Below are positions 735 to 60,924 of a stretch of 64,000 nt of DNA, one piece after another. The number at the start of each line of letters is the position of its first letter. The first letter of the stretch is position 1. A program made the position numbers and the translations under genes. The notes below the pieces were generated by a model that ran no database searches, was not told where the DNA came from, and saw only the letters and a program-made list of their open reading frames with translations. Origin of the DNA: an uncultured Bacilli bacterium (GTDB taxonomy: Bacteria > Bacillota_I > Bacilli_A > RF39 > UBA660). The stretch is from positions 46,654-110,653 of the forward strand of contig CASTSB010000002.1 of assembly GCA_949451605.1 (NCBI GenBank). The letters are read 5' to 3'.

Positions 735-1862
735 TTAATATGTTCTAATTGGTAAAACTAATTGAGTTAAAGATTCATCTTCTTGAGATTTAATTAAAAT
801 TGGTTTTACTTCTCCAACAAAATGAATATCCACAGTATCTGTTGAAAAACTTTTTAAGGCTTCCATCATATATTTTGCACTAAAAGATATCTTTATTTCT
901 TCTGAATTATTTTTAGTAATATTCATTTTTTCTTCTACTCTACCAATTTCTGCAGAACTACTCTTTAATATTAATGTGTTTCCATTTGTTTCTAATGTTA
1001 CTATATTCTTTTCTTTATCGCTTGTTAAAATACTAACACGATCAATTACATCATAAAAAGCATTTAACGATGTTGTTATTACTAAGAACGAATCATCTGG
1101 TAATAAGTTTGAAGTATTAGGATAAGTTCCATTTATTAATCTTGATTCAAATTTTAAATTACCATTCTTAAATAAAATTTTATTACTAAAGATATGTAAT
1201 TCAATATCTTCTTCTTCATCACTTAGTATTCTAGAAAATTCAATTACATTATGACTAGGAATTACAATATTATAATTTTCTTCACTTGGCCTATCTAATT
1301 TAACAATCTTTCTTGCTAATCTATAAGAATCCGTTGAATTACATTCTAAAATATCCCCTACAATATTAAAATTAATACCAGTAAGTACAGGCTTACTTTC
1401 TTCATTAGATGTAGCAAAAGCTGTTTGATTAATAATATTTTTAAAAGCTCCTGCTTTAATAATAACTTTCTTCTTACTTTCTTCTAATCCTATATTAGGA
1501 TATTCACTTTCACTTATACCATTTAAATTAAATTCACTATTTTCAGTATATATTAATATTTTTAATTCATCTATTACTTCTATATTAATATATTTATCAG
1601 GTAATTTTCTTACTATATCTAAAATGTATTTTCCTTGAATAATTATACTACCTTCATTTTCAACAGTAAAATCTTCATCACTATTAGATTCAATAACTGT
1701 TTGAATAGTAATATCATTATCACTAGCTGTTAATGTTAATCTTTTCTTTTTCAATTCAAATTTTACACCAGCAAGTACTGGTATTAAATTTTTGGTTGAG
1801 ATTGCTTTAGATACTTTATTTAAAGCATCTAATAATAAGTCCTTTTTAATTGTTAATTTCAT
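735..1862 (-). CDS. dnaN: DNA polymerase III beta sliding clamp
   Basis: 375 aa. Immediately downstream of dnaA on the same strand. N-terminus MKLTIxKDLL and overall length are typical of DnaN. Confidence 0.9.
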   Translation of the reverse strand: MKLTIKKDLLLDALNKVSKAISTKNLIPVLAGVKFELKKKRLTLTASDNDITIQTVIESNSDEDFTVENEGSIIIQGKYILDIVRKLPDKYINIEVIDELKILIYTENSEFNLNGISESEYPNIGLEESKKKVIIKAGAFKNIINQTAFATSNEESKPVLTGINFNIVGDILECNSTDSYRLARKIVKLDRPSEENYNIVIPSHNVIEFSRILSDEEEDIELHIFSNKILFKNGNLKFESRLINGTYPNTSNLLPDDSFLVITTSLNAFYDVIDRVSILTSDKEKNIVTLETNGNTLILKSSSAEIGRVEEKMNITKNNSEEIKISFSAKYMMEALKSFSTDTVDIHFVGEVKPILIKSQEDESLTQLVLPIRTY

Positions 1863-1994
1863 AATTATATTCCTTCTTTCTTTAAGATTTTATTATTATT
1901 ACTGTGGAAAAAGTGGATAACTTTCTTTTTCCTAAGTATATCAACAAAAAGTTATCAACATATCCTGTGGAAAAACTGTTATTAACTCATATTT
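1863..1994. promoter_or_regulatory. dnaA-dnaN spacer with DnaA boxes (second oriC module)
   Basis: TGTGGAAAA at 1903-1911 and 1966-1974 (reverse complement TTTTCCACA), AGTGGATAA at 1912-1920, TTATCAACA at 1952-1960. A bipartite oriC flanking dnaA is typical of Firmicutes. Confidence 0.55.
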
Positions 1995-3356
1995 TTACAC
2001 AAGACCTATATCTTTCTTTAGCTTTTCTATTATATTAGCTAAATCTTTATTAACTTTTATTTCATTTTCAATTTTTTCAACTGAATGCATAACTGTTGAA
2101 TGGTCTTTTCCACCAAACTCTATACCAATTCTTGGAAATGATTCCGATGTCATTATTCTACAGAGGTACATTGCAATTTGTCTAGGAAAAGAAATATTAG
2201 AACTTCTCTTTTTACTTCTAATATCTTCAACAGAAATTTGAAAGTATTCAGATACAATTTTTTGTATTCTATGAACATCATTCTTTTCCCCTATTCCTTT
2301 ACTAACTGTGTCTTTTAAAGCCTCAACAGCAAGATCTAAATTAATTTCTGCACTTCCCATCATTGAGGAATAAGCTACAAGTCTTGTTATAGACCCCTCT
2401 AATTGCCTTACATTAGTACCAGTATTAGATGCAATATATTCTATAACATCATCTGGAATGTCTTTTTCTAAGTTTTCAGCAATTATTTTTTTTCTTATTA
2501 TTTGAGATCTTAATTCAAAATCTGGAGGAAAAATATTAACTTCTAATCCCCAAGTAAACCTTGTTCTAAGTCTATCCTCTAATACTTTTAAATCATTTGG
2601 AGATCTATCAGAAGATATAATTATTTGCTTACTATCATTATATAAATTATTAAAAGTATGGAAAAACTCTTGTTGAGTTTTTGTAGCTCCTCCTAAAAAT
2701 TGTATATCATCTATAATCAAAACATCAATGTTTCTATATTTATTTTTAAAGAAGTCTACATAATTAAAATTTGTTTCCAAATCATCTTTTCTATTTGTTT
2801 TTATAAAGTCCTGGATAAATTGTTCACTTGTTACATATAGAACTCTTTTATTAGAATTATTTGTAATATAATTTCCAATTGCATGCATTAAGTGTGTTTT
2901 TCCTAATCCGCTCTCTCCATATAAGAATAATGGATTGTACATATTACCAGGATTTTCAGCAACAGAAAGAGCAGCTGCATGAGCAAATTTATTACTATTA
3001 CCTACTACAAAGTTATCAAATGAATACTGTTTTTTTAAATTAGAATTTATATGTTCATCTTTTACAACTTCTTCTCTTACAAGATTAGTCTCCTCTATTT
3101 CTGTTTCTATCTCCTCATTTAATAGAAAAATAAGTTCACAATTAGATCCAGTAATTTTATTAAGTTTTTCAGAGATTAAATTTTCATAATTATCAATTAA
3201 ATGCTTCTTATGAATTGGCATCGGCACTATTATATAAGCTTTAGAATTATCTATTCTATAAAGTTTTGTTTCAGAAAACCAGGTTTGATAAGCTAAAGAT
3301 GATAATTCATCTTTAATTTCTAATAAGAAATTTGACCAAATTGAATCAAAATTCAT
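1995..3356 (-). CDS. dnaA: chromosomal replication initiator DnaA
   Basis: 453 aa. Walker A GESGLGKTHL, sensor and Walker B regions, and a C-terminal DnaA-box binding domain (FGGKDHSTVMHS). DnaA boxes on both flanks. Confidence 0.95.
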   Translation of the reverse strand: MNFDSIWSNFLLEIKDELSSLAYQTWFSETKLYRIDNSKAYIIVPMPIHKKHLIDNYENLISEKLNKITGSNCELIFLLNEEIETEIEETNLVREEVVKDEHINSNLKKQYSFDNFVVGNSNKFAHAAALSVAENPGNMYNPLFLYGESGLGKTHLMHAIGNYITNNSNKRVLYVTSEQFIQDFIKTNRKDDLETNFNYVDFFKNKYRNIDVLIIDDIQFLGGATKTQQEFFHTFNNLYNDSKQIIISSDRSPNDLKVLEDRLRTRFTWGLEVNIFPPDFELRSQIIRKKIIAENLEKDIPDDVIEYIASNTGTNVRQLEGSITRLVAYSSMMGSAEINLDLAVEALKDTVSKGIGEKNDVHRIQKIVSEYFQISVEDIRSKKRSSNISFPRQIAMYLCRIMTSESFPRIGIEFGGKDHSTVMHSVEKIENEIKVNKDLANIIEKLKKDIGLV

Positions 3357-3782
3357 TGATTATCATCTCCCCTGATTTAAAAATTACGATTACTAGTTTA
3401 ACTTAAAACCTTTAAAAAAGAAACTATTTTTTTGAAAAATTTCAAAAAGTTTTTAAAACTAAATATCTAACTTCAAAATAACTAAAAAAACTAAAAAAAT
3501 CAACAAAAAGTGGGGAAAAAATGTTTAAAACTTTTTCTACAAATTTAGACAAAATTCTATCCACATCTTATCCACAAAATATTCCACAATTAAAATTATT
3601 GAAAAATAAGGCTAAAATATACTTTTCCACATTTTCCACAGATTAAGATTTAACAATGTTAATTATAGTTATTAACAATGCTGTGGAATATGTGGATTAA
3701 TAAATAATTATTTAAAAATTAATTGACAAAAACATATTGTTCTTATTATAATAGGGTAGATTTATGTCTGGAGGTGGAGTAG
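3357..3782. promoter_or_regulatory. oriC: DnaA-box cluster between divergent dnaA and rpmH
   Basis: Perfect TTATCCACA at 3568-3576. Near-consensus boxes: CTATCCACA 3557-3565, TATTCCACA 3580-3588, TTTTCCACA at 3623-3631 and 3632-3640, and inverted TGTGGAATA 3683-3691 / TGTGGATTA 3691-3699. Divergent transcription leaves from here and most genes on each side are co-oriented with replication. Confidence 0.7.
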
Positions 3783-21473: not shown

Positions 21474-22835
21474 ATGCCGTTAAAGAATTTACCAAATAAT
21501 ATAGAGGCAGAAGAATCGGTATTAGGAGCTTGCTTTTTATCAAAAGAAGCTCTTCAAAAAGCAATAGAATCATTGCAACCAGAATCATTTTATAATGAAA
21601 AACATCAAAAAATCTTTTCTGCAATGCTTTCTTTAAATGAAGAAAAAACTCCTATTGATATTACTACGGTGACTAGTTATTTAAATAATCATAATAGTTT
21701 AAATGAAGTAGGGGGAGTTGAATATTTAACTGATGTTTTAAACTTTGTACCTACTGCAAGCAATGTAGGTTACTACATTCAATCTGTAGAAGAGACAGCT
21801 TTATTAAGAAAATTAATAGAGACAGCTACAGAAATAGCTTCTGAAGGATATAGAGCTGACGAAACAGTTAATGAGATACTAGACAATTCAGAAAAGAAAA
21901 TCCTAAGTATAGTAAAAAACAGAAAAGTTAGTGAGTTTAGAAGTATTAAAGATGTTTTAACAAAAACACAGTTAGATCTTGAAAGATTATCCGAAAGTAA
22001 AGGAGAAATAACTGGTCTTGCAACAGGATGGTATGACTTGGATAAATTGACTACAGGCCTACATCCTAATGAATTTATAATTATAGCCGCACGTCCTGCG
22101 ATGGGAAAAACAGCATTTGCCTTAAACCTAGCAACTCATGCAGCTATGACTCAAGATAAAGCAGTTGCCTTATTTAACTTAGAAATGAGCGCCGAACAGT
22201 TAGCGATGCGTATTTTATCATCTGTAGGACAAATAGAAGGTTTTAAACTAAAAACAGGAAATCTTTTAAATAATGATTGGAAAAGAATAAATGAAGCATC
22301 TTCCCAATTATCAAATACTAATATGGTAATTGATGATACTCCTGGTATTACTATTGGAGAAATAAGAGCTAAATGTAGAAGACTTGCAAGTTCAGATAAA
22401 GGGTTAAGTTTAGTTGTTATAGATTATTTACAGCTAATATCTGGAGGAAAAAATTACGGAAGCAATAGACAACAAGAAGTATCAGACATTTCAAGAAGCT
22501 TAAAAACGTTAGCTATGGAGTTAGAAGTTCCTGTTATAGCTCTTTCTCAATTGTCACGTAGTGTAGAAGGAAGAGAAGATAAAAGACCATTAATGAGTGA
22601 TTTGCGTGAGTCTGGTTCTATAGAGCAAGATGCTGATATAGTAGCATTCTTATATAGAGATGACTATTATAATAAAGAAGCAAGAACAGAAGATAATAAC
22701 AGTATTAGTGAATTAATAATCGGAAAACATCGTAATGGTCCAACAGCAACTGTAGAACTTTTATTTAAAAAGAATACTTCAACTTTCTTAAATCTAAGAA
22801 AAGATAGAGAAAGTTTAGGAGAACAAGGTGGTTAA
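21474..22835 (+). CDS. dnaB: replicative DNA helicase (DnaB family; DnaC in B. subtilis nomenclature)
   Basis: 453 aa. Walker A ARPAMGKTAFALN and the typical DnaB C-terminal RecA-like motifs. Confidence 0.9.
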   Translation: MPLKNLPNNIEAEESVLGACFLSKEALQKAIESLQPESFYNEKHQKIFSAMLSLNEEKTPIDITTVTSYLNNHNSLNEVGGVEYLTDVLNFVPTASNVGYYIQSVEETALLRKLIETATEIASEGYRADETVNEILDNSEKKILSIVKNRKVSEFRSIKDVLTKTQLDLERLSESKGEITGLATGWYDLDKLTTGLHPNEFIIIAARPAMGKTAFALNLATHAAMTQDKAVALFNLEMSAEQLAMRILSSVGQIEGFKLKTGNLLNNDWKRINEASSQLSNTNMVIDDTPGITIGEIRAKCRRLASSDKGLSLVVIDYLQLISGGKNYGSNRQQEVSDISRSLKTLAMELEVPVIALSQLSRSVEGREDKRPLMSDLRESGSIEQDADIVAFLYRDDYYNKEARTEDNNSISELIIGKHRNGPTATVELLFKKNTSTFLNLRKDRESLGEQGG

Positions 22836-24321
22836 AATGAAAAAATTAATAATAACAATAATGGTAATATCTATTTTATTTACAGCTGGATTTTCGAAAA
22901 TGTTAAAAAGTCCAAAAGAAGTTTATAGAGTTTACTTAAAAGGTGAGTCAATTGGCTTAATAAAATCAAAAGAAAAATTAGAAAAATATATTGATACTAA
23001 AGAAGCTGAAATTAAAGAAAAATATAAAGTAAAAAAAGTATATGCACCTACTGATTTAGATATTGTAAAAGAAGTTACATATTATGATAATGTTTCTTCT
23101 GTTAAAAAAATCTATAATAAAATAAAAGATATTTCTCCATTTACAATAAATGGGTATAAAATAACTATAAAAGGTATTGATTCTAAGGACTCAAATGGAA
23201 AAACAATTAAGGGAAAAAATCAAACTATTTATGTACTAGATAAAGAAGTATTTAGAGAAGCTGCTAATACTACAGCTCAAGCTTTTATTGGGAAATCTGT
23301 TTATGAATCCTTTGCTAATGATACTCAAAAAGAAATAGAAGAAACAGGAACTGTAATAGAAAATATTTATATAGAAAATACAGTAACTATAAAAAAGACA
23401 AATATTTCTGTTGATGAAACTATTTATATGGATAAAGAAACATTAAGTCAATATTTACTTTTTGGTACAACAAAGCAACAACAAAAATATAGAGTTCAAG
23501 ATGGAGATTCTATCGAAGATATTGCTTATAATAATAAAATCTCAAATGAAGAGTTTTTAATTGCTAACCCAACAATACCAAGTGTTAATAGTTTATTATA
23601 TTCTGGTCAAGAGGTAACTTTAGGAGTACTTAAACCTCAAATTAGAGTAGTTGAATGGGACCATGTAGTTAAAGATGAAGAACAAAACTACACTACTATT
23701 ACAGAAGAAGATCCCAATCAATATACTGATTACTCAAAAGTTAAACAAGCAGGAGTTAAGGGAAAGAATCGAGTAACATTAAAGATTCAGAAAGTAAATG
23801 GTGAGTCAACTTCAATTGTACCAGTATCTACCGAAGTATTAAAAGAACCAGTACAAGAAATTGTTATCAAAGGAACTAAGAAAAAATCTGGATATTTTGG
23901 CGGAGGATACGGTTCTGTTATTCCAACTAAAGGTATCTTTGGATGGCCTGCTACATGTTCTACTATATCAAGTCCATTTGGATGGCGCTGGGGAGCATTA
24001 CATGATGCAGTAGATATTGCAGGTTGTGGATACGGATCAAATATTTTTGCAGCAGAATCTGGAACTGTTGTTCAGTCATCATATAAATACGATAATGGTC
24101 AATATATAACAATCCAACATGACAATGGTTATTACACAATGTATGCTCATCTTTGTGAAGGATGCAGATACGTTAGTGTTGGACAAAGAGTTCAAAAGGG
24201 TCAAGTAATTGGTGGAATGGGAAGAACAGGAGCAGCATCAGGTGTTCACTTACATTTTGCAATCTGGACAGGATTTCCATATCGTGGCGGTAAACCATTA
24301 AATCCTATGGGGTTCTATTAA
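22828..24321 (+). CDS. secreted LysM-domain M23 family metallopeptidase
   Basis: N-terminal transmembrane/signal sequence. LysM (YRVQDGDSIEDIAYNNKISNEEFLIANP). C-terminal M23 (HDAVDIA...HLHFAIW). Confidence 0.7.
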   Translation: MVKMKKLIITIMVISILFTAGFSKMLKSPKEVYRVYLKGESIGLIKSKEKLEKYIDTKEAEIKEKYKVKKVYAPTDLDIVKEVTYYDNVSSVKKIYNKIKDISPFTINGYKITIKGIDSKDSNGKTIKGKNQTIYVLDKEVFREAANTTAQAFIGKSVYESFANDTQKEIEETGTVIENIYIENTVTIKKTNISVDETIYMDKETLSQYLLFGTTKQQQKYRVQDGDSIEDIAYNNKISNEEFLIANPTIPSVNSLLYSGQEVTLGVLKPQIRVVEWDHVVKDEEQNYTTITEEDPNQYTDYSKVKQAGVKGKNRVTLKIQKVNGESTSIVPVSTEVLKEPVQEIVIKGTKKKSGYFGGGYGSVIPTKGIFGWPATCSTISSPFGWRWGALHDAVDIAGCGYGSNIFAAESGTVVQSSYKYDNGQYITIQHDNGYYTMYAHLCEGCRYVSVGQRVQKGQVIGGMGRTGAASGVHLHFAIWTGFPYRGGKPLNPMGFY

Positions 24322-44044: not shown

Positions 44045-46534
44045 ATGAAATTTTTAAGAAAATTATTTGATCATGAATATAAAGAATTAAAAAGGTTCGA
44101 AATATTAGCTAATAAAATCATGGATTTAGATGAAGAATATTCTAAATTGACTGATACAGAATTACAAAACAAAACTGAAGAATTTAAAGAACGTCTACAA
44201 AAAGGTGAAACTTTAGATGATATCTTGGTTGAAGCATTTGCTACAGCTCGTGAAGCTTCTTTCCGTGTTATAGGAGAAAAACATTACTTTGTCCAAATAC
44301 TAGGTGGACTTGCAATTCATTTTGGAAATATTGCTGAAATGAAAACAGGTGAAGGAAAAACTTTAACCAGTGTATTACCAGCATACCTAAATGCTCTATC
44401 AGGAGAAGGAGTTCATATTATTACTGTAAATGAATACCTAGCTGGAAGAGATGCTGAATGGATGGGTGGAATTCATAGATTCTTAGGCCTTACAGTTGGT
44501 GTTAATGGAAGAGATTTAACTCCTACAGAAAAACAAGAGGCTTATAATTGCGATATATTATATTCAACAAATAATGAAATTGGTTTTGATTATTTAAGAG
44601 ATAACATGGTTGTTAGAAAAGAGGAAAGAGTTCAAAGAAGATTAAATTTTGCCATAATCGATGAAGTGGATTCTGTTCTAATAGATGAAGCAAGAACTCC
44701 TTTAATTATTTCTGGTGGAGAAATGAAAGCAGCTAATTTATATATTGATGCTGACAAATTTGCTAAAAGTTTAAAAGAAGAAAAAGACTTTATTTATGAT
44801 GAAAAAACAAAAAGTGTTAATTTAACTGAATCTGGATCTGATAAAGCAGAAAAAATGTTTCATATAAACAATTTATATGATATTGAAAATGCAACTTTAT
44901 TACACTTTGTAAATCAAGCATTAAAAGCTAATTATTCAATGAGAAATGATGTTGATTACGTAGTTCAAGATGGAGAAGTAGTAATAGTAGATCAATTTAC
45001 TGGTCGTCTACAAAAAGGACGTGCTTATTCTGATGGTCTTCATCAAGCAATTGAAGCAAAAGAAGGCGTACAAATTAATCAAGAAACAAAAACCCTAGCA
45101 ACTATTACTTTCCAAAATCTATTTAGAATGTATAAAAAATTATCTGGAATGACTGGTACAGCTAAAACAGAAGAAGAAGAATTTAGAAACATCTATAATA
45201 TGTATGTAATTGAAATCCCAACAAATAAAGAAGTTATAAGAATTGATGCACCAGATCTTGTATATGCAACTAAAGAGGCCAAATATAAAGCAATTGTTGA
45301 ATTTGTAAAAGATAAATATGAACATGGTCAACCTGTATTAATTGGTACAATCGCAATAGAAAGTAGTGAATTAATAAGTAATCTATTAAAACAAGCTCAT
45401 ATTCCACATGAAATATTAAATGCTAAAAATCATGCGCGTGAAGCAGAAATTATTTCAAAAATTGGACAAAATAAATCTGTAACTATCGCTACAAATATGG
45501 CAGGTCGTGGTACTGATATTAAACTATCAGATGAAATAAAAAAACTAGGAGGTCTATGTGTTGTAGGTACAGAACGTCATGAATCACGCCGTATCGATAA
45601 CCAATTACGTGGACGTTCAGGTCGTCAAGGAGATCCTGGTTATACTCAATTCTTTGTTTCTATGAAAGATGATCTTATGGTTAGATTTGGTTCAGATAGA
45701 ATCGGCGATATGATGAAAAACTTAGGACTTGGAGATCAAGCAATCCAAAGTAAAACATTTACAAATTCTATTGGAACAGCTCAAAAAAGAGTTGAGGGAA
45801 ACAATTTTGATATAAGAAAATCTTTACTTCAATATGATGATGTTATGAATAATCAAAGAGAAATAATTTATGAAAAAAGAAATAAAATTTTAGATAATGA
45901 TAGTATTTATTCAATGGTTACCAATACATTTAGAAATCATATAGAAGATTTAGTAAAATCTCACTTAGCACCAGAAGATTATTTAACTGACAGTGATTTA
46001 GAAGAAATAACTGAATTTGCCAATGAGAATTTACTAAAAAAAGATATAAAAATATCAGAAATAAAAGATTTATCACCAGAAGAAATTATTGATAAATTAT
46101 CAAAACAGTTAATAACAGAATATGAAGATAAAATAAAAGATGTACCAAAAGAAATTTCTAATGAATTTGAAAAAGTAATTACACTACAAGTACTTGATAA
46201 TTACTGGATGGAGCATATAAATACTATGTCACACTTAAGAGAAGGAATTCATTTAAGAGGTTATGCTCAAGAAGATCCATTAAGAGCATATACAATGGAA
46301 GGTTTTGAACTTTTTGATTCAATGCTTCAAAAAGTTGATAAAGATATTTGTATATTCTTATCAAAAGCAGAAATAAGACAAAATATAGAAAGAAAAGAAA
46401 CAACAAAAAAACAAATAACTAATGATACTGAATCAAGAGATACAAAAAAAACAAAGAAGAGCAAAAAAATTGGTAGAAATGAACCATGTCCTTGTGGAAG
46501 TGGAAAGAAATATAAGCAATGTTGCGGAAAGTAG
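44045..46534 (+). CDS. secA: preprotein translocase ATPase SecA
   Basis: 829 aa. DEAD-like motor motifs. C-terminal zinc finger CPCGSGKKYKQCCG. Confidence 0.95.
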   Translation: MKFLRKLFDHEYKELKRFEILANKIMDLDEEYSKLTDTELQNKTEEFKERLQKGETLDDILVEAFATAREASFRVIGEKHYFVQILGGLAIHFGNIAEMKTGEGKTLTSVLPAYLNALSGEGVHIITVNEYLAGRDAEWMGGIHRFLGLTVGVNGRDLTPTEKQEAYNCDILYSTNNEIGFDYLRDNMVVRKEERVQRRLNFAIIDEVDSVLIDEARTPLIISGGEMKAANLYIDADKFAKSLKEEKDFIYDEKTKSVNLTESGSDKAEKMFHINNLYDIENATLLHFVNQALKANYSMRNDVDYVVQDGEVVIVDQFTGRLQKGRAYSDGLHQAIEAKEGVQINQETKTLATITFQNLFRMYKKLSGMTGTAKTEEEEFRNIYNMYVIEIPTNKEVIRIDAPDLVYATKEAKYKAIVEFVKDKYEHGQPVLIGTIAIESSELISNLLKQAHIPHEILNAKNHAREAEIISKIGQNKSVTIATNMAGRGTDIKLSDEIKKLGGLCVVGTERHESRRIDNQLRGRSGRQGDPGYTQFFVSMKDDLMVRFGSDRIGDMMKNLGLGDQAIQSKTFTNSIGTAQKRVEGNNFDIRKSLLQYDDVMNNQREIIYEKRNKILDNDSIYSMVTNTFRNHIEDLVKSHLAPEDYLTDSDLEEITEFANENLLKKDIKISEIKDLSPEEIIDKLSKQLITEYEDKIKDVPKEISNEFEKVITLQVLDNYWMEHINTMSHLREGIHLRGYAQEDPLRAYTMEGFELFDSMLQKVDKDICIFLSKAEIRQNIERKETTKKQITNDTESRDTKKTKKSKKIGRNEPCPCGSGKKYKQCCGK

Positions 46535-46537
46535 ATT

Positions 46538-46565
46538 AAAGCCCATTTATAAGGGCTTTTCTTAT
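46538..46565 (+). terminator. rho-independent terminator after secA
   Basis: AAAGCCCatttataAGGGCTTTT. Confidence 0.65.
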
Positions 46566-46606
46566 AAACAAATTTATTAAAATGGCAAGGGAATTTTAGT
46601 TTTTAA

Positions 46607-46894
46607 TTGTCATTAATAATTTATGATATAATTAAAATATTAATAATTACTTTTGCCATAGGAGGTATATTTTATACAATAAAAATAAGTAATAGATATA
46701 ATAAAGATACCTCAACTAAAGAAGTTATAATTAGCCTTTTTAAGGAACATAATGCAATAGATTTAGAAAGTGGTATTAAAATTAAAGATTTACCTAATAA
46801 CATTTCAAAAAGCCTATATCTATTAATGATGGTTAAAGATAATACTCTTATTTTTAAGAAAGGTAAATATTATTTAAATGAAAAACTTAAGTAA
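46607..46894 (+). CDS. hypothetical small protein with N-terminal TM helix (island gene 1)
   Basis: 95 aa from a TTG start. No RBS confidently identified. Overlaps the next ORF by 17 nt. Confidence 0.3.
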   Translation: MSLIIYDIIKILIITFAIGGIFYTIKISNRYNKDTSTKEVIISLFKEHNAIDLESGIKIKDLPNNISKSLYLLMMVKDNTLIFKKGKYYLNEKLK

Positions 46895-47108
46895 ATATAA
46901 AAAATTATGGGAATATTTAGAAGCTAATAAAGAATTAGAATATAATCTATCTTTTGATGATATAAAAAATATTATTGGTTTCAATATTGATCATTCATTT
47001 TTATCTTATAAAAAAGAAGCCGAAATATATGGTTATAAAGTAAAAAAAATATCATTAAAAGAAAAAATGATAGTTTTTGAAAAAAACAAGAAATTAGGAG
47101 ATATATGA
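46878..47108 (+). CDS. hypothetical small protein (island gene 2)
   Basis: 76 aa. Overlaps both flanking ORFs, consistent with an operon. Confidence 0.3.
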   Translation: MKNLSKYKKLWEYLEANKELEYNLSFDDIKNIIGFNIDHSFLSYKKEAEIYGYKVKKISLKEKMIVFEKNKKLGDI

Positions 47109-47740
47109 AAAATAAAATTAGTGAAATAGGAGCCATATCCATGGCTTTATTGTATAGAAAGAAATATGCTGATTCAGAAATGATTAAATTGTCTTCAGCA
47201 AAAAAATTCAAAGAAACTATTGAAAGTAATTTACAAAGCATGCATAGTGAGTATAGTTGGTGCACAAATTATAAAGAAGAAAATGATTTATATTTTATAT
47301 GTAGAGATGAAAATAATATCTTATATGCAATTATTGACCCTTCAGCAAATATTCAAAGAGCCACAGAACATTATATTTACTGTTTGCCTACAGATATAAT
47401 TCAGGCTTCATTAATGAATAATGTCTTAGAAATTATTGGCTTAAAAGAAGAAAATAATAAGATTGTAGAAATAAGGGATGAAAAACTAGACAATGAATTA
47501 GAAAAAGTAATAAATCTAAATATAAAAGATCCTAATAATTTTTATAAGGAAGTTTTCTATAGTTTAAGCTTAGAGGAAAGAGATTTCTTAAAACAACAAT
47601 TTACTAATAAAAGCTGTTTCAATTGTATTAATGGTCTATGCAAATTACCATATAAAGAAAAAGGTGATAAAGGTTGCTGTATTGATTGGCAAAATCCATC
47701 AGAATTAGGTAAGAAATATATATTAAAAAAGAAAAGTTAA
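47105..47740 (+). CDS. hypothetical protein with C-terminal Cys-cluster (island gene 3)
   Basis: 211 aa. C-terminus CFNCINGLCKLPYKEKGDKGCCIDW suggests a metal-binding knuckle. Confidence 0.35.
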   Translation: MKNKISEIGAISMALLYRKKYADSEMIKLSSAKKFKETIESNLQSMHSEYSWCTNYKEENDLYFICRDENNILYAIIDPSANIQRATEHYIYCLPTDIIQASLMNNVLEIIGLKEENNKIVEIRDEKLDNELEKVINLNIKDPNNFYKEVFYSLSLEERDFLKQQFTNKSCFNCINGLCKLPYKEKGDKGCCIDWQNPSELGKKYILKKKS

Positions 47741-47770
47741 GAACATTATATGTTCTTTTATTTTTTTCTT
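47739..47770 (+). terminator. rho-independent terminator after island gene 3
   Basis: AAGAACATtatATGTTCTT followed by TTATTTTTTT. Confidence 0.55.
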
Positions 47771-47774
47771 AACA

Positions 47775-47788
47775 AGAACAAATGTTCG
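47775..47788 (+). promoter_or_regulatory. LexA (Cheo/SOS) box overlapping promoter of radical-SAM operon
   Basis: AGAACAAATGTTCG gives a perfect GAAC-N4-GTTC core, matching the Bacillus consensus CGAACATATGTTCG at 12 of 14 positions. It lies immediately upstream of TATAAT (47792-47797) and 26 nt before the ATG at 47814. Confidence 0.6.
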
Positions 47789-47813
47789 TGTTATAATTGA
47801 ATTGGTGATAACT

Positions 47814-49019
47814 ATGGATTTAAAAGAAAAACTAATTATATTAGCTGATAGCGCAAAATATGATGCCTCATGTTCATCCAGTGGCAGTTCAAGAAAAGAA
47901 GGTAAACTAGGCAATACAGCAGTGGCAGGTATATGCCATTCATTTGCTGCAGATGGTAGATGTATTTCTCTTCTAAAAATATTATTAACAAATTGTTGCA
48001 TTTACGATTGCAAATATTGTCCAAATAGACGAACTAATAATATTAAAAGAGCAACATTTACTAAAGAAGAAATATGTGAAATTACTATTAATTTTTATAG
48101 AAGAAATTACATAGAAGGACTTTTTATTTCTTCTGGTATTATAAAAAATCCTGATTACACAATGAATCTTATGATAGAAGCAATCTCGTTATTAAGAAGT
48201 AAATATCATTTTGGTGGATATATACATGCAAAAGCTATTCCCGGAGCAAGTGAGTATCTTTTGAAAAAACTAGGTAATCTTGTTGATAGATTAAGTGCCA
48301 ATGTAGAACTACCAACTGATGAAGGGTTAAAACTATTAGCTCCTAATAAAGATAATAGAAAAGTAGATAAAATAATGGATTATGTTCATAAAAACAGAAC
48401 AAATAAATTTGTCCCAGCAGGACAAAGCACCCAGATGATTATAGGAGCAACAAAGGAGACGGACTTAGAAATAATGTCAAAAAGCTCTACTATGTATAAT
48501 AAACATGAATTAAAAAGAGTTTTTTATTCTGCTTATATTCCTGTAAATAAAGATAAACTTTTACCAACGCTCCAAACGCCACCACTATTAAGAGAAAATA
48601 GACTATACCAAGCAGACTGGCTATTAAGATATTATAATTTTAAAGTTGAAGATATTTTAGATGAGAAAAATCCAAATTTTAATCTTTTACTAGATCCGAA
48701 GGCCTCTTGGGCTTTAAAACATTTAAATGAATTTCCAAAAGAGATAAATAGCTGTTCATTTAATGATCTTTTAAAAATACCAGGTATAGGAGTTACTTCT
48801 GCGAAAAGAATAATTTCTTCACGAAAATATTTTAAAATTACATTTAATGATTTGAAGAAAATGGGGATTGTTTTAAAAAGGGCAAAGTATTTTATCACAT
48901 GTAATAATAAGTATTTTACAGATAGCACATTCTTTAATAAAAATATTATAGAAAGAAATTTAATATTAGAAGACAAAGTAAAAAAAGAATCTAATATTGA
49001 ACAATTAGCTTTATTTTAA
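47814..49019 (+). CDS. putative DNA modification/repair radical SAM protein with HhH (TIGR03916-like)
   Basis: CIYDCKYC cluster (CxxxCxxC). C-terminal helix-hairpin-helix LLKIPGIGVTSAKRII. Start at the ATG after RBS GGTGAT; the track ORF begins 12 nt upstream. Confidence 0.7.
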   Translation: MDLKEKLIILADSAKYDASCSSSGSSRKEGKLGNTAVAGICHSFAADGRCISLLKILLTNCCIYDCKYCPNRRTNNIKRATFTKEEICEITINFYRRNYIEGLFISSGIIKNPDYTMNLMIEAISLLRSKYHFGGYIHAKAIPGASEYLLKKLGNLVDRLSANVELPTDEGLKLLAPNKDNRKVDKIMDYVHKNRTNKFVPAGQSTQMIIGATKETDLEIMSKSSTMYNKHELKRVFYSAYIPVNKDKLLPTLQTPPLLRENRLYQADWLLRYYNFKVEDILDEKNPNFNLLLDPKASWALKHLNEFPKEINSCSFNDLLKIPGIGVTSAKRIISSRKYFKITFNDLKKMGIVLKRAKYFITCNNKYFTDSTFFNKNIIERNLILEDKVKKESNIEQLALF

Positions 49020-49786
49020 TGAAAAAAAGTAATTATATTTATCTATATGATAATGATTTTATATCTCTATTAAGTCTGATAAAAATACTTATAACGAAGA
49101 AAGTAATTCCATGTAATATAAAACCTAATACATATACTCCTTCACTTTTTGAAGAGACATTTAAAGAACAAATATCCGAAAATGAAATCATTATAAAAGA
49201 AATAATAGATGCGACTTCATTCTATATTCTTAACACAATGTATAAAATATTTCTATCTGAGCACAATGATAAAGAGATAATAATCTACTACTTTTTTGTT
49301 CATGCCTTAAAATATCAAAATAAAATTTATTATATGCGTAATTTAAAAAGTGTTACTGAGGCATTAAAAATTGAAAAATTTGTAGAACATGAAACACATA
49401 AATTTAAAGGATTTCTTAGGTTTAAGGAATTAAAAGGTGGAATTTTGTATGCCACTATAGAACCGGATAATAACATAATTCTTTTCCTTTCTAAACATTT
49501 TAAACAAAGACTCCAAAATGAATTTTGGATTATAGAAGATAAAAAAAGACAATTAATAAGCATATATGATAAAAATAATTTTTATATTACTTCTTCAGAA
49601 TGCTTCAATATTTTAGATAAAGAGTTATCAGAAGCTGAAGAAGATATAGAAAACTTATGGAAAAACTTTTACAAAACAATTGCAATAAAAGAAAGAACTA
49701 ATTATAGATGTCGTATGAATTTTATGCCAAAAAAATACTGGAAATATATTATAGAAATGAGTGATAAAAATGAAAATAGTTATTAG
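49019..49786 (+). CDS. TIGR03915/DUF4130-like putative DNA metabolism protein (partner of the radical SAM protein)
   Basis: N-terminus IYLYDNDFISLLSLI...PSLFEE matches my recollection of the family N-terminus (IYxYDGxFEGLLTxIF...QxSLF). Translationally coupled (TAATG) to the upstream gene. Confidence 0.55.
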   Translation: MKKSNYIYLYDNDFISLLSLIKILITKKVIPCNIKPNTYTPSLFEETFKEQISENEIIIKEIIDATSFYILNTMYKIFLSEHNDKEIIIYYFFVHALKYQNKIYYMRNLKSVTEALKIEKFVEHETHKFKGFLRFKELKGGILYATIEPDNNIILFLSKHFKQRLQNEFWIIEDKKRQLISIYDKNNFYITSSECFNILDKELSEAEEDIENLWKNFYKTIAIKERTNYRCRMNFMPKKYWKYIIEMSDKNENSY

Positions 49787-51320
49787 TGGTCAAGAACTAC
49801 AAGAAAAGATGACTTTTGCAGTTAATTTATTATGTAATACAGTAAAAAGTACCATTGGACCCAAGGGAAGCAATATTATAATAGATCATTCTGCCTTTAG
49901 TCCTTTTATTACAAATGATGGAGTAACAATAGCACAAAATATAGAAAGTGAAGATCAAATTACCAATACCATTTTGGAATTAGCAAAAGAAGCTTCAATA
50001 AAGACTAATTATTTGGTAGGAGATGGTACAACCACAACATTAGTTTTACTACAAGTAATTTTCAATGAAGGATTAAAAGAAATAAATAATGGAAAAAATC
50101 CTATTATTTTAAAAAAAGAGCTTGAAGAAAGTTTATCAAAAATAATAATAAAAATAAAAGAAGAAAGTAAAAAATCTACACTCAAAGATTTAGAAAATAT
50201 TGCTTTGACGTCTTCTAGTTCTAAAGAAATAGCCAAAATAATTACAGAAGCTTTTAAAATAACTAAAAATAAAGAGTCAATTAAGATTATAGAACAAGAA
50301 AATAATTCCATTAACTTAATTTATAAAAAAGGATATTCAATAGATACACTATTAGCTTCTCCTTATTTTCTGGCAGATAAAAAAGAGATATCAGAAGAAA
50401 ATTTATCTGTTATATTGATTAATAATTATATTCAAGAAATAGAAGAAATTTCAATTTATTTAAGTGATGCTATTACAAATAAAAAATCTTTAATAGTTTT
50501 AGCAGAGGATTATTCTGAATTGGTAATAAATGAAGTTTTATCAATAAACGAATATAGTAATAATAAAATATACTTGCTTAAAATACCAGAATATGGAAAA
50601 AACAAATATGATTTGTTAAAAGATTTAGAACTAATAACAAAAGCTAAAATAATAAACGATTTAGCAAATATAAGTTTTGAAAATTTAGGATTAATAGAAA
50701 ATATAAAAATTGATTGTTCACAAAGCACATTTTATTTTAATGAAAATAATAAAATTAATGAAAAAATAAAAGAGCTTAAGTCTCTTTTTGATAATACTGA
50801 AGAATATAATGAATATTTAGCCAAAAGAATATCAATGTTAGAAACAGGTATTATTGAAATTCTTATTGGAGCACCAACTATTACAGAAAGAAGAGAAAAG
50901 AAAATGAGAGCAGATGATTGCTTATGTGCAATTAACTCTGCAAAAGATGGTTTTGTTACTGGTAGTGGATTAACTTTGTATAAAATTTCAGATAGTTTTC
51001 AAAAAGAAAATCAATCAATTTCTAATATTTTACTAAAAGCACTACAAGAGCCTTTTAAAGAGATAATGTTTAATTCAGGTCTAGATTATAAAGAAATTAT
51101 TTCAGAAATCAAATTATCCAATTATCAAAAAGTTTATAATGTTATAAGCGAGAAATTCGAAAATATAGCTAGTTCAACTGTTAAGGATCCTACAAAAGTA
51201 GTAATTGACTCATTAATTAATGCAACTTCAATAGCTAGTATTTTATTAACAACCACTTCCTTAATAGTTAATGAATACAAAAATAATACCAATAAAATAA
51301 ATGACTTCAATGATTTATAA
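49761..51320 (+). CDS. highly divergent orphan chaperonin Cpn60/GroEL paralog (no GroES partner)
   Basis: Collinear with GroEL by eye: GPKGSNIIIDHSAFSPFITNDGVTIAQNIESEDQ ([34 protein letters not shown]), GDGTTTTLVL (GDGTTTATVL), SPYFLADKKEISE, LIVLAEDYS, ERREKKMRADDCLCAINSAKDGFVTGSGLTL ([32 protein letters not shown]). Lacks the GGM tail. Overlaps the upstream gene. Confidence 0.7.
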   Translation: MIKMKIVISGQELQEKMTFAVNLLCNTVKSTIGPKGSNIIIDHSAFSPFITNDGVTIAQNIESEDQITNTILELAKEASIKTNYLVGDGTTTTLVLLQVIFNEGLKEINNGKNPIILKKELEESLSKIIIKIKEESKKSTLKDLENIALTSSSSKEIAKIITEAFKITKNKESIKIIEQENNSINLIYKKGYSIDTLLASPYFLADKKEISEENLSVILINNYIQEIEEISIYLSDAITNKKSLIVLAEDYSELVINEVLSINEYSNNKIYLLKIPEYGKNKYDLLKDLELITKAKIINDLANISFENLGLIENIKIDCSQSTFYFNENNKINEKIKELKSLFDNTEEYNEYLAKRISMLETGIIEILIGAPTITERREKKMRADDCLCAINSAKDGFVTGSGLTLYKISDSFQKENQSISNILLKALQEPFKEIMFNSGLDYKEIISEIKLSNYQKVYNVISEKFENIASSTVKDPTKVVIDSLINATSIASILLTTTSLIVNEYKNNTNKINDFNDL

Positions 51321-51364
51321 TTATTGTATAATATAATAAAAGTAGTGATTAAAGGAGAATAATT

Positions 51365-52213
51365 ATGGCTGTAGAAGTTACAATAAAGAATAAAAGTTTA
51401 TTTAAAAGAAAATTAAATATAAAAGATTTAATATTAGATGGTATACGTTATGGAATAATGGATGAAGCTTTTAGATTAGAAGAAAATAAAATTGGTGAAA
51501 ATACTGTTTTATTTGATAAGCAACATGTTTGTAGAGGATTTGAAGTATCTTTGAATAATAATGAAATCTTTCTAAGAATGCCTCTTCCAACATCTACCAA
51601 AGATATAGAATTTTTTTACAACTATATTACTAAAATTTGTAAAAAACTTAATACAAAAAAATTTATAAGAGAAAATGAAACAGTATTTATCGATCAAATA
51701 GAAGAATTTATCAACTTTGATATTGAAACTAGTAAAAATGCTTTAAAACAAATGCAAACAAAAATAGAATCAGAAGAAATGAATAATATGTACTTGTTCG
51801 GAGCAGTAAATCCAATTTGCTTAGGAAAAGAAGAAATAGAAAAGATAAACAATAGTCCAAGAAACCTTGGAGAATTACTTAATAGTATTCAAACCAAAGA
51901 TGTATATTACGCAAAGCCAAGTATCTATCAAAAAAAAGATGAATCATTTTTTGGAGTTTTTGTATTAACATCAGATGTTCCAACAGTATTACCATATATA
52001 CCTAAACTTATAATGCCTAATAAAGAAATAAAGGTAAATAATTGGTATTTATGTTTCGTTGTAAAAGATCAAATGTTAGGGCAAATAGCCTATGATGATT
52101 TTACTTCTAATTTAAAAGATGAAGATTCTTATGATAGTGAACATTTTGTAATTAATCTAAATGAAAAGATTATAAAAGATTATTTAGAAAAATATAGAAC
52201 AGAAATAGACTAA
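51365..52213 (+). CDS. hypothetical protein, last gene of SOS-box operon
   Basis: 282 aa. RBS AAAGGAGAATAATT before the ATG. No recognisable motif. Confidence 0.35.
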   Translation: MAVEVTIKNKSLFKRKLNIKDLILDGIRYGIMDEAFRLEENKIGENTVLFDKQHVCRGFEVSLNNNEIFLRMPLPTSTKDIEFFYNYITKICKKLNTKKFIRENETVFIDQIEEFINFDIETSKNALKQMQTKIESEEMNNMYLFGAVNPICLGKEEIEKINNSPRNLGELLNSIQTKDVYYAKPSIYQKKDESFFGVFVLTSDVPTVLPYIPKLIMPNKEIKVNNWYLCFVVKDQMLGQIAYDDFTSNLKDEDSYDSEHFVINLNEKIIKDYLEKYRTEID

Positions 52214-52230
52214 TAATTAGTCTATTTTTG
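52205..52230 (+). terminator. terminator at end of island operon
   Basis: ATAGACTAATaATTAGTCTAT palindrome overlapping the stop codon, followed by TTTTTG. Confidence 0.45.
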
Positions 52231-52444
52231 TATAAAAAAAGAACCCCCTGAATAGGAGCTCCATCTATTTACAGAGGATCTTCACACTACATAGTGAACC
52301 TTCCTCATTTATAATATATGTAAAAACATAAAAAATATACACAATAAAATTTTCCAAACTTTCAAATTGTAAAAATTTATGCTATTCTTAAATTAAATAG
52401 TATTTTAAAAACTAAAAGAGCAATAATAATATAAGGAGAAAATA

Positions 52445-53540
52445 ATGGAAAAAAAAGATTTAGAAAAAATAATTAATTATAATATTGAAACGATAAATAG
52501 TTTATGGAGGTCACTTTGACATAGATTCCAAAAAACAAAAAGTAAAAGATTTAGAACAAATTACTGCAAACCAAAATTTTTGGAATAATAGGTTAGAAGC
52601 CGAAAAAGTTTTAAAAGAAATTACAGAGTTAAAAAACATTATTAATCAAGTTTCTGACTTAAAAATAAAATTAATTGATAATAAAGATTTTTTAGAAATA
52701 ATTGATGAAAAAGATGTAGAATTATTTTCTCAATTAGAAAAAACAATTAATGAAGATAATAAGATAGTAGAAGACTTGAATTTGCTATTACTTTTAAGCG
52801 GACCTTATGACAAAAACGACTGTATTTTAGAAATTCATTCGGGAGCTGGTGGAACTGAAGCTTGTGATTGGGCAAATATGATATATAGAATGTATCAAAG
52901 ATGGTGTGAAAAGAAAAAATATAAAATTGAAATTCTAGATTATCAAACTGGTGAAGAAGCTGGAATTAAAAGTGTGTCATTAAAAATAAAAGGTTTAAAT
53001 GCCTATGGATATTTAAAAAATGAGAAAGGTGTACATAGATTAGTTCGATTATCTCCTTTTGATTCAAATAATAGAAGACATACTTCATTTGCATCTGTAG
53101 AAGTAACACCAGACATAGAAGTTGATAATTCTATAGAAATAGATGAAAAAGACTTAAAAATCGATGTATATAGATCTACAGGAGCTGGAGGACAAGGAGT
53201 AAATACAACAGATTCAGCAGTAAGAGTTACCCATTTGCCTACTAAAATAGTTGTTACATGTCAAAATGAAAGAAGTCAAATTCAAAATAAAGAGCAAGCA
53301 ATAAAAGTATTAAAAAGTAAATTATTAGTAAAAAAACTTGAAGAGCAAGCAAAAGAAATAAATGCTATAAAGGGTGAACAAATGAATATTGAATTTGGCT
53401 CTCAAATAAGAAGTTATGTAATGCATCCTTATTCTTTAGTAAAAGACCACAGAACTAATGAAGAAACAAGCGATGTATTCAAAGTTTTAGATGGTGAGAT
53501 AGATAAATTTATTGAAAGTAATTTAAAGAAAGGGTTATAA
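52445..53540 (+). CDS. prfB: peptide chain release factor 2 (programmed +1 frameshift)
   Basis: Upstream frame MEKKDLEKIINYNIETINSLWRSL ends at CTT TGA C. The +1 frame continues DIDSKKQKVKDLEQITANQNFWNN...LLLLSGPYDKNDCILEIHSGAGGTEACDW and includes the GGQ motif, collinear with B. subtilis RF2. The track ORF 52776..53540 is the downstream part. The start coordinate is uncertain by 1 nt because of my counting across homopolymer runs. Confidence 0.85.
52514..52520 (+). promoter_or_regulatory. prfB autoregulatory +1 frameshift site CTT TGA C with upstream SD-like GGAGG
   Basis: TGGAGGTCACTTTGAC shows the canonical RF2 recoding signal: internal Shine-Dalgarno, CUU-UGA-C slippery stop with a C after the stop. 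Confidence 0.8.
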
Positions 53541-60425: not shown

Positions 60426-60924
60426 AAAGAAAAATCTCTTTATCCTTTTATCTACCACTAAATCTGCCCGATAAATACTTATCTTTTTGCGAAATTTTAA
60501 GACTATACCTTTTGAAACCTTTTTGATTTTGTTCTTCGTAATATCTTTTTCTTCTTCAGACTTTTATTTCTTTTTTAGTAGTTGTAAAATTTATCTTTGT
60601 CTATTTGGTTAACATCCTCTCTATCTTTTTTTATTTAGTTTCAACTATTTTGAACCTAATCTTCTAATCGCCTAATTCTCAATCTATTTAAATATAGGCT
60701 TATCATATCATTTATATAGATAGAAAAAACAATCTAAACATATTTTGTAAAATATTAAATTTTGTATAAGACAGAAATAAAAGATAATAATAAAACAGAG
60801 AAAGATAAGTTTAGCTTAATTACTAATAAGTATTATTGTTTTATATAACAAGAAATGATAAAATATAGTATCGAAATAAAATCATTTTTAATTAACAAAT
60901 TGAAAACAGAAAGTAGGAGATATT

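Follow-up and report, generated by a model that had tools for sequence, protein, structure and literature searches.

A LexA-box operon for radical SAM, DUF4130, and Cpn60-like proteins as one of three probably independent units in a plastic secA-prfB interval of an uncultured Bacilli bacterium

What lies between secA and prfB in the genome of an uncultured Bacilli bacterium, and did it arrive there in one piece? We examined a window of 64,000 nucleotides (nt) from this organism (GTDB lineage Bacillota_I; Bacilli_A; RF39; UBA660), which corresponds to forward-strand positions 46,654 to 110,653 of contig CASTSB010000002.1 in GenBank assembly GCA_949451605.1 and has a G+C content of ~26.7%. Seven plus-strand open reading frames (ORFs) occupy the spacer from the end of secA at 46534 to the ATG of prfB at 52445; this content, given in a preliminary description of the DNA, was borne out by our ORF map. 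The same description took the spacer to be an insertion of about 5.9 kb. Our results indicate that the interval is probably a long-lived plastic spot with three independent units: a small-protein operon (o1-o2-o3), a LexA-box operon encoding a radical S-adenosylmethionine (rSAM) protein, a DUF4130 protein, and a Cpn60-like protein, and a DUF4299 gene. The second of these is the core unit, for which a mechanism is proposed, and it consists of the following features.

47769..47797, plus strand: promoter TTAACA-17-(TG)TTATAAT, from the sequence
47814..49019 (ORF opens at 47802), plus strand: rSAM protein of family TIGR03916 (NCBIfam, Pfam)
49019..49786, plus strand: DUF4130 protein of family TIGR03915 (NCBIfam, Pfam)
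49770..51320 (ORF opens at 49761), plus strand: Cpn60-like protein of 516 amino acids (aa) (Pfam Cpn60_TCP1)

UGA was read as a stop codon because prfB is present with its own UGA frameshift site. The rSAM and Cpn60-like proteins likely start at ATG 47814 and ATG 49770, respectively, which match the gene calls of relatives; the probable transcription start also points to ATG 47814 for rSAM. The rSAM protein scored 610.4 bits against the NCBIfam model TIGR03916 (cutoff, 343.5 bits) and matched Pfam Radical_SAM (1.5e-09) and, below the gathering score, HHH_3 (8.2e-05); its cluster motif CxxxCxxC reads CIYDCKYC in the translation. The DUF4130 protein, which is not fused to a uracil-DNA glycosylase (UDG), scored 205.4 bits against TIGR03915 (cutoff, 112.25 bits) and matched Pfam DUF4130 at 8.6e-45. 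The rSAM stop codon overlaps the DUF4130 start by 1 nt at 49019, as it does in all related loci, and the DUF4130 stop overlaps the Cpn60-like start by 17 nt in the window and by 4 to 23 nt in all 11 lineages with gene calls. The TIGR03916-TIGR03915 (COG4277-COG1573) operon has been put forward as a possible system for base excision or modification, and LexA control of the pair was predicted or verified in Verrucomicrobia, Alphaproteobacteria, and Bacteroidetes (PMC4951493, PMC8565304). The pair occurs in about a fifth of prokaryotic genomes (PMC4951493) and is DNA-damage-responsive in Moraxellaceae (PMC12392091). In addition, gene neighborhoods tie DUF4130 to SplB-like rSAM proteins and UDG (PMC3765255), and a 2026 preprint used AlphaFold 3 to predict, with confidence, that the rSAM and DUF4130 proteins form a heterodimer whose narrow channel would suit single-stranded nucleic acid (bioRxiv 10.64898/2026.08.19.745780).

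The promoter of the operon contains a LexA-type box, AGAACAAATGTTCG, at 47775-47788. This box is a perfect palindrome that occupies the spacer between the -35 and -10 elements, and it has the CGAAC-N4-GTTCG form that, overlapping a promoter, defines operators of the Firmicutes LexA regulon. The core GAAC-N4-GTTC occurred 2 times per 64 kb, versus 0.15 expected. The second exact copy, GAACTGTTGTTC at 24062-24073, is located inside an ORF (22828-24321) and is probably due to chance. Upstream of rSAM, an operator of the form (G/A)AAC-N4-GTT(C/T) was found in 11 of the 13 lineages that we compared, versus 0.02 expected per window; it was identical and in the same position at loci L085, L091, and L177, and AAAC/GTTT variants were present in seven further lineages. 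The SOS box proposed in the preliminary description is therefore real and conserved. The four-gene SOS operon that it proposed was cut back to a conserved module of three genes, since DUF4299 is a neighbor of the module in the window species and its sister only.

The conservation of this module was examined across the 13 lineages (the window species, P0002, P0006, P0041, P0014, P0106, P0119, P0062, P0056, P0090, P0099, L095, and L096). The order rSAM, DUF4130, Cpn60-like was the same in all 13. The flanking genes varied among lineages (uvrB/uvrA, UDG/NUDIX, RecD2, LigD, or mutS) and were common within the sub-lineage of L092, L178, and L179; differing flanks that are shared within a sub-lineage indicate that relocation of the module is a rare event against a background of vertical inheritance. 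Mean pairwise identities were 77% for the rSAM protein, 57% for the DUF4130 protein, and 51% for the Cpn60-like protein, and the pairwise distances of the three proteins were correlated with one another (r, 0.64 to 0.86). As a control, we used 78 canonical GroEL loci pulled in by a metagenome scan with the Cpn60-like alignment, a scan that also found 2 family members. None of the 78 control loci carried rSAM or DUF4130 within 8 kb of canonical GroEL. A groES gene adjoined GroEL at 72 of these 78 loci, versus 0 of 15 module loci. Several module loci also have repair genes as neighbors (L088, 14264-14971; L091, 6024-7188; L175, 15714-18152; L180, 1-3379; L085, 13537-21421), which encode UDG-family and NUDIX proteins, LigD Prim-Pol, a RecD2-like helicase, and UvrB/UvrA. 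The position of the module near other repair genes is loosely consistent with a repair role.

Next, we examined how the Cpn60-like protein relates to GroEL. Every NCBIfam GroEL model scored it under the cutoff (equivalog model TIGR02348, 296 versus 582 bits; best subfamily model, 329 versus 352 bits). Its own species apart, the best 120 clusters of homologs at 90% identity were 46 to 65% identical to it. Among representatives at 50% identity, ~55 to 60 full-length proteins scored 250 to 478 bits, and canonical GroELs followed below them at ~30 to 33% identity and ~215 to 240 bits; overall, the protein is ~29 to 30% identical to canonical GroELs. These scores indicate that the Cpn60-like proteins constitute a distinct subfamily, for which neither an NCBIfam model nor a database name was found. 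An AlphaFold2 model built with a 40-sequence family alignment reached a predicted local distance difference test (pLDDT) score of 91 and a predicted template modeling (TM) score of 0.85, and Foldseek placed it on GroES-bound GroEL/Hsp60 subunits (4v4o and 5opx) with a TM score of 0.88 at 27 to 29% identity. The residues were compared by alignment to E. coli GroEL, with checked residue numbering. The residues D52, D87, D398, and D495, the G32/P33 pair, and the GDGTT core did not vary among the 40 family members. Serine took the place of T30 and of the last threonine of GDGTTT in 2 of the 40, and asparagine that of K51 in 39. The salt bridge residues R197 and E386 were replaced, as were L234 and V264, whereas Y203, F204, and L237 were mostly kept. 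The Gly-Met tail (GGM) was absent. Within the family, the apical domain was the least conserved, with 29% mean identity versus 48% for the equatorial domain. A phage origin of the Cpn60-like gene was also considered and rejected, since the protein is at most 31% identical to phage GroELs, which are no closer to it than cellular ones. One homologous protein of 1081 aa (P0179) contains two stretches that match the Cpn60-like query at 24% identity; it may be a chaperonin-like protein of tandem or fused type.

These properties bear on another explanation, in which the Cpn60-like protein is the general chaperonin of the lineage, divergent through reduced AT-rich genomes and merely cotranscribed with the SOS operon. 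No canonical groEL was found at any of the lineage loci examined, which are loci and not whole genomes. The intact ATPase site and the retention of Y203, F204, and L237 on the apical hydrophobic surface would also fit a general chaperonin. A general chaperonin that responds to DNA damage is conceivable, since UmuC-dependent mutagenesis in E. coli needs GroEL. However, a sole essential chaperonin is not expected to have a LexA operator at its only visible promoter, and the linkage to rSAM and DUF4130 holds in 13 of 13 lineages even though the module relocates. The lack of groES near all 15 module loci and the loss of the R197-E386 salt bridge, L234, V264, and the GGM tail also argue against it. 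Moreover, the Cpn60-like protein is 65% identical between the window species and its sister, which share 93% identity in PrfB and 90% in the rSAM protein; this rate fits a specialized paralog better than a sole housekeeping chaperonin. Taken together, these points make the general-chaperonin explanation unlikely.

We tentatively propose that an SOS-induced rSAM-DUF4130 machine for DNA repair or modification includes the Cpn60-like protein as an obligate part that uses ATP and needs no GroES. This part would fold the enzyme, load its iron-sulfur (Fe-S) cluster, or remodel the complex; we regard this specific role as possible, at a level well below our confidence in the reading of the interval as a whole. 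The mechanism would begin with DNA damage, upon which RecA-stimulated self-cleavage of LexA would free the promoter, as the operator suggests. The overlapping stop and start codons are present in the sequence, and translation coupled through them could yield the three proteins in a fixed proportion. The rSAM and DUF4130 proteins, whose families are known, would then form a complex acting on damaged or modified DNA, and the Cpn60-like ATPase would assist this Fe-S complex, and it alone, as a chaperone or assembly partner that works without GroES.

Several observations weigh against this proposal and against the reading of the interval in which it is placed. The literature that we found reports no demonstrated reaction for any TIGR03916 or TIGR03915 member. 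Conserved gene order indicates linkage, not physical interaction, and the lack of a canonical groEL among the lineage loci means that the Cpn60-like protein could be the only chaperonin of the cell. For SOS control, the operator is the sole argument; its clean palindrome is missing in 2 of the 13 lineages (L095 and L096), of which L095 carries a one-mismatch version. Neither lexA nor recA was seen in the window, where the LexA check covered four ORFs of ~200 aa and most ORFs were left unscanned. The uvrB gene is SOS controlled in Bacillus subtilis, and no LexA-type box was found upstream of uvrB in the window.

The origin of the interval was then addressed by comparing the DNA between secA and prfB in relatives. 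The two boundary genes and the elements at their edges are as follows.

44045..46534, plus strand: secA, Pfam SecA domains, with a SEC-C motif at residues 811-829
46538..46559, plus strand: secA terminator hairpin AAAGCCC-N8-GGGCTTT with a weak T tract
52205..52229, plus strand: strong terminator, an AT-rich hairpin with a T run that closes the DUF4299 transcript
52445..53540, plus strand: prfB, encoding RF2 (Pfam RF2), from ATG 52445

A SecA scan of one genome per species yielded 80 loci from uncultured gut Bacilli with secA 66 to 87% identical, including Ca. Faecimonas, Ca. Scybalousia, and 'Clostridium sp. CAG:710/302/433/762'. None of the 80 relatives had rSAM, DUF4130, Cpn60-like, or DUF4299 within the searched 10 kb of secA, and a homolog of the o3 N-terminal domain followed secA in 3 of them. 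Where prfB was visible, the distance from secA to its matched part was 1.5 to 9.9 kb, and many loci exceeded 10 kb. Clustering the ORFs of 45 downstream regions revealed a mosaic of mostly unique genes. The commonest cluster was a tyrosine integrase with an Arm DNA-binding domain (22 ORFs at 14 of the 45 loci), and KilA-N and RhuM genes recurred among the island cargo. The integrase gene (Phage_integrase plus Arm-DNA-binding) lay ~210 to 270 nt 3' of secA in relatives. At eight loci (L012, L018, L032, L033, L042, L057, L064, and L078), the last ~15 to 40 nt of secA were repeated 0.8 to 8.7 kb downstream, and the duplicated codons specify CPCGSGKKYKxCCGK plus the stop, which is the SEC-C zinc motif. 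Repeats of this kind are the mark of an element that integrates site-specifically at the secA 3' end. At L078, an integrase island of 4.9 kb is flanked by a 24-nt repeat of the secA end, and 3' of the second copy come a terminator and, ~300 nt on, prfB. Because prfB follows this second copy so closely, the adjacency of secA and prfB is likely ancestral. These sequence signatures indicate that the secA 3' end is an attachment (att) site for tyrosine-integrase islands in these uncultured Bacilli. Contigs ended within 600 nt downstream of secA at 30 of the 80 loci, versus 4 of 80 upstream, as expected if populations are heterogeneous there. Locus L032 also contains a 1.2-kb second copy of the C-terminal half of secA with 64% identity. 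Among the matches listed of our full-text literature search, secA was not described as an integration target.

In the window, the final ~40 nt of secA, which are the att core used in relatives, encode the same SEC-C zinc motif (CPCGSGKKYKQCCGK plus stop). Another explanation of the interval is that all 5.9 kb between secA and prfB were acquired horizontally as a single element, for instance a genomic or defense island. This explanation would agree with the location in an integration hotspot of relatives, with content that is common to none of the 80 relatives, and with a terminator at either edge. Nevertheless, the secA 3' 21-mer occurs only once in the window, also when up to three mismatches are tolerated, and neither Pfam nor NCBIfam detected an integrase in the interval. 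The flanking sequences yielded no direct repeats, only AT-rich chance matches, so a check for repeats at both edges, as the preliminary description had suggested, was negative. The G+C content matches the flanks, and so does the G+C content at third codon positions (0.10 to 0.18 for the seven ORFs versus 0.11 to 0.13 for secA, prfB, and mreB). Furthermore, the sister species (L176/L177), with PrfB 93% and YitT 92% identical to those of the window, has the order o1-like (58%), an 87-aa Cys-rich gene equivalent to the C-terminal part of o3 (54%), rSAM (90%), DUF4130 (79%), Cpn60-like (65%), DUF4299 (68%), and prfB. The right-hand five genes thus stand together in the sister too, and this shared arrangement indicates that the content predates the species and was assembled from pieces with separate histories. 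The module itself occupies other chromosomal sites elsewhere and is vertical within sub-lineages, as the common flanks of L092, L178, and L179 show, and o1-o3 are themselves mosaic. A single acquired element is therefore very improbable. Of the insertion originally claimed, what stands is that the DNA is nonancestral and variable, since the four right-hand genes do not follow secA in any of the 80 relatives and the gaps differ everywhere in length and content; what falls, on the single secA end, the lack of an integrase and repeats, the native codon composition, and the arrangement of the sister, is one bounded insertion. Likewise, the alignment to relatives that was recommended as a check supports an ancestral secA-prfB adjacency and variable gap contents and reveals no single element. 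As for the strong terminators said to bound the insertion, the right-hand hairpin is strong, but the secA hairpin on the left is only modest (fold z-score of the region, -1.1).

The left-hand unit of the plastic spot illustrates these separate histories. It comprises the following features.

46607..46644, plus strand: promoter-like TTGTCA...TGATATAAT with a deletion junction (blastn, sequence comparison)
46607..46894, plus strand: o1, 95 aa, with an N-terminal membrane helix
46878..47108, plus strand: o2, 76 aa, soluble
47105..47740, plus strand: o3, 211 aa, with a Cys cluster
47739..47767, plus strand: o1-o3 terminator hairpin AAGAACAT-TAT-ATGTTCTT with a T run, z-score -3.6, kept in the sister species

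The terminator at 47739-47767 sits between o3 and the SOS promoter. Two contigs from strains that are 99.5% identical to the window (L081 and L082; compared over 1454-3484 and 1-715, respectively) have an additional 1.97 kb between the secA terminator and o1, with a TfoX_N fragment, membrane ORFs of 128 and 56 aa, and an AraC/GyrI-like regulator. The window has a deletion here, whose junction is located at a 9-nt microhomology, ATAATTAAA, at 46628-46636. The deletion took the native ribosome-binding site (RBS) and ATG of o1, both of which are present in L081 and L082, and the TTG at 46607 that opens the o1 ORF in the window falls in what was the promoter of the genes now deleted. With its native start lost, o1 may be poorly expressed in this strain. 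The o1 homolog in the sister (L177) has 89 aa and 58% identity, and no o2 homolog was found at any locus examined outside the species of the window. The o3 protein is a fusion of two modules, an N-terminal part of ~125 aa and a Cys-rich C-terminal part of ~85 aa. The N-terminal part occurs as stand-alone ORFs of 136 to 139 aa after secA (tblastn; L031, 8465-8875; L036, 6472-6885; L068, 12535-12954), and L177 has a gene of its own for the C-terminal part (453-716).

The three small genes had been described as being in the style of a toxin-antitoxin or defense cassette, and this alternative, a toxin-antitoxin pair or a small antiphage cassette, was examined further. The overlaps of o1 with o2 and of o2 with o3 and the Cys cluster of o3 are real, and three small overlapping genes, the first for a membrane-anchored product and the last for one with a Cys cluster, would suit such a cassette, as would a location in a hotspot where islands land. 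At L036, the homolog of the o3 N-terminal part adjoins a DUF3644/EC042_2821 restriction endonuclease (REase)-like gene, which also speaks for it. On the other hand, a defense-system search of o1-o3 with PADLOC returned no match at E<=0.1, and PADLOC and PHROGs on the interval as a whole returned only a generic phage GroEL family. Pfam and NCBIfam gave no family above threshold for the three proteins; the matches in Pfam and PHROGs were weak and sub-threshold, and the only Pfam match of o2 was DUF2204 (19.4 bits versus a cutoff of 20.3). No phage or plasmid homologs of o3 were found, a word-based protein search recovered o3 from its own species only, and its sequence matches in PDB were all nonsignificant. 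Blastn of the o1-o2 DNA against plasmids gave only short AT-rich chance matches; at the protein level, o3 alone of the three was compared with phages and plasmids. A single-sequence AlphaFold2 model of o3 had a pLDDT of 36, was unusable, and was not used. Outside this species, o1-o2-o3 never occurred together: L031, L036, and L068 have just the N-terminal part of o3, and the sister has just its C-terminal part together with o1. The loss of the native RBS and start of o1 in this strain also argues against a working cassette. The defense style thus found no support in the searches or in co-occurrence, and we consider a toxin-antitoxin or defense cassette highly doubtful. The o1-o3 genes are better read as accessory cargo that appears to be strain variable and partly decayed in this strain.

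The third unit and the element upstream of prfB lie at the right-hand end of the interval.

51365..52213, plus strand: DUF4299 protein, 282 aa (Pfam DUF4299, 8e-22)
52236..52306, minus strand: two-hairpin element, a hairpin followed by a hairpin with a T7 terminator

The DUF4299 gene begins 44 nt after the Cpn60-like gene with its own RBS, and an extended -10-like sequence, TTGTATAAT, lies upstream of it at 51324-51334. No terminator separates the two genes, and DUF4299 may be cotranscribed with the three-gene operon. The protein had no relative in PDB and no phage match, and only three weak plasmid or chromid matches were obtained. In Campylobacter jejuni, a DUF4299 gene is located in a type VI secretion system (T6SS) effector-immunity region (PMC8285248), which is not informative here. 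The GC-rich tract noted earlier at the right edge proved to be real, structured, and kept in three species (52236-52306). On the minus strand, this element has a promoter-like TTTACA..TATAAA, a hairpin GAGGAAGGTTCAC-N8-GTGAAGATCCTC, and then the hairpin with the T7 terminator. Copies are present at L176 (4290-4360), L012 (21880-21945), and L037 (20500-20560), and the element is kept in three species even where the left-hand gene differs. The L012 copy shows two compensatory changes from A-U to G-C in the first hairpin, in a comparison of three distinct sequences only. No Rfam match was found for the element, which is a candidate small RNA of ~75 nt tied to the upstream region of prfB.

The remaining features of the window belong to its backbone. 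Pfam identified HPF, SecA, and RF2 in the flanks, and prfB has a programmed +1 frameshift (GGAGG...CTT TGA C) with its site at 52514-52520. Two yitT genes, ftsE, ftsX, an M23 peptidase gene, and uvrB follow 3' of prfB, in a backbone order that matches that of B. subtilis. Upstream of uvrB, ~500 nt (60430-60920) contain no ORF of at least 120 aa and have pyrimidine-rich runs. No tRNA or tmRNA was found, and the Rfam scan gave only chance snoRNA-type matches within coding sequence.

If the proposed role is true, the Cpn60-like protein would be the first chaperonin paralog dedicated to a DNA-damage pathway and would provide a handle for assigning the reaction of TIGR03915 and TIGR03916. The rSAM-DUF4130 pair recurs in SOS regulons, yet it is without an assigned reaction, and a private chaperonin that always overlaps the pair suggests an enzyme complex that is hard to fold or assemble. 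Coexpression with its own Cpn60 may thus be a route to soluble, active rSAM-DUF4130. A GroEL paralog in a single pathway, under predicted LexA control and without GroES, also bears on how chaperonin paralogs specialize. Separately, the use of the secA 3' end as an integration site would aid in interpreting assembly breaks in metagenome-assembled genomes and in locating islands.

Finally, we compared the locus with known systems. The islands of relatives are like the dusA- and trmE-targeting islands (PMC4482086, PMC8409611) in that they integrate into the 3' end of a conserved gene and restore that gene. Their target, in contrast, is the SEC-C motif end of secA, and the window itself has none of the island hallmarks.

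Against the GroEL family, the Cpn60-like protein shares the three-domain fold and the residues for ATP binding and hydrolysis. It differs in having no adjoining groES and no GGM tail, in the replacement of R197-E386 and part of the apical groove, and in its fixed link to a LexA box and an operon for DNA repair. Specialized GroEL paralogs are known from other bacteria and from phages, including Chlamydia GroEL2/3, mycobacterial GroEL1, the nif- and nod-linked GroELs of rhizobia, and phage EL gp146, and those of rhizobia and mycobacteria include client-specific paralogs. A chaperonin partner of the rSAM-DUF4130 pair was not mentioned in the literature found or the databases searched. The window operon shares with the known TIGR03916/TIGR03915 operon the adjacency of the two genes, the overlapping stop and start codons, scores far over the cutoffs, and a LexA-type operator in the promoter. 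Unlike the known pair, its DUF4130 protein has no UDG fusion, and the lineage of the window adds a third overlapping gene for a divergent Cpn60, present in all 13 lineages. Altogether, the integration hotspot and the two-gene SOS operon are of known kinds, and the obligatory overlapping Cpn60 paralog is the new part.

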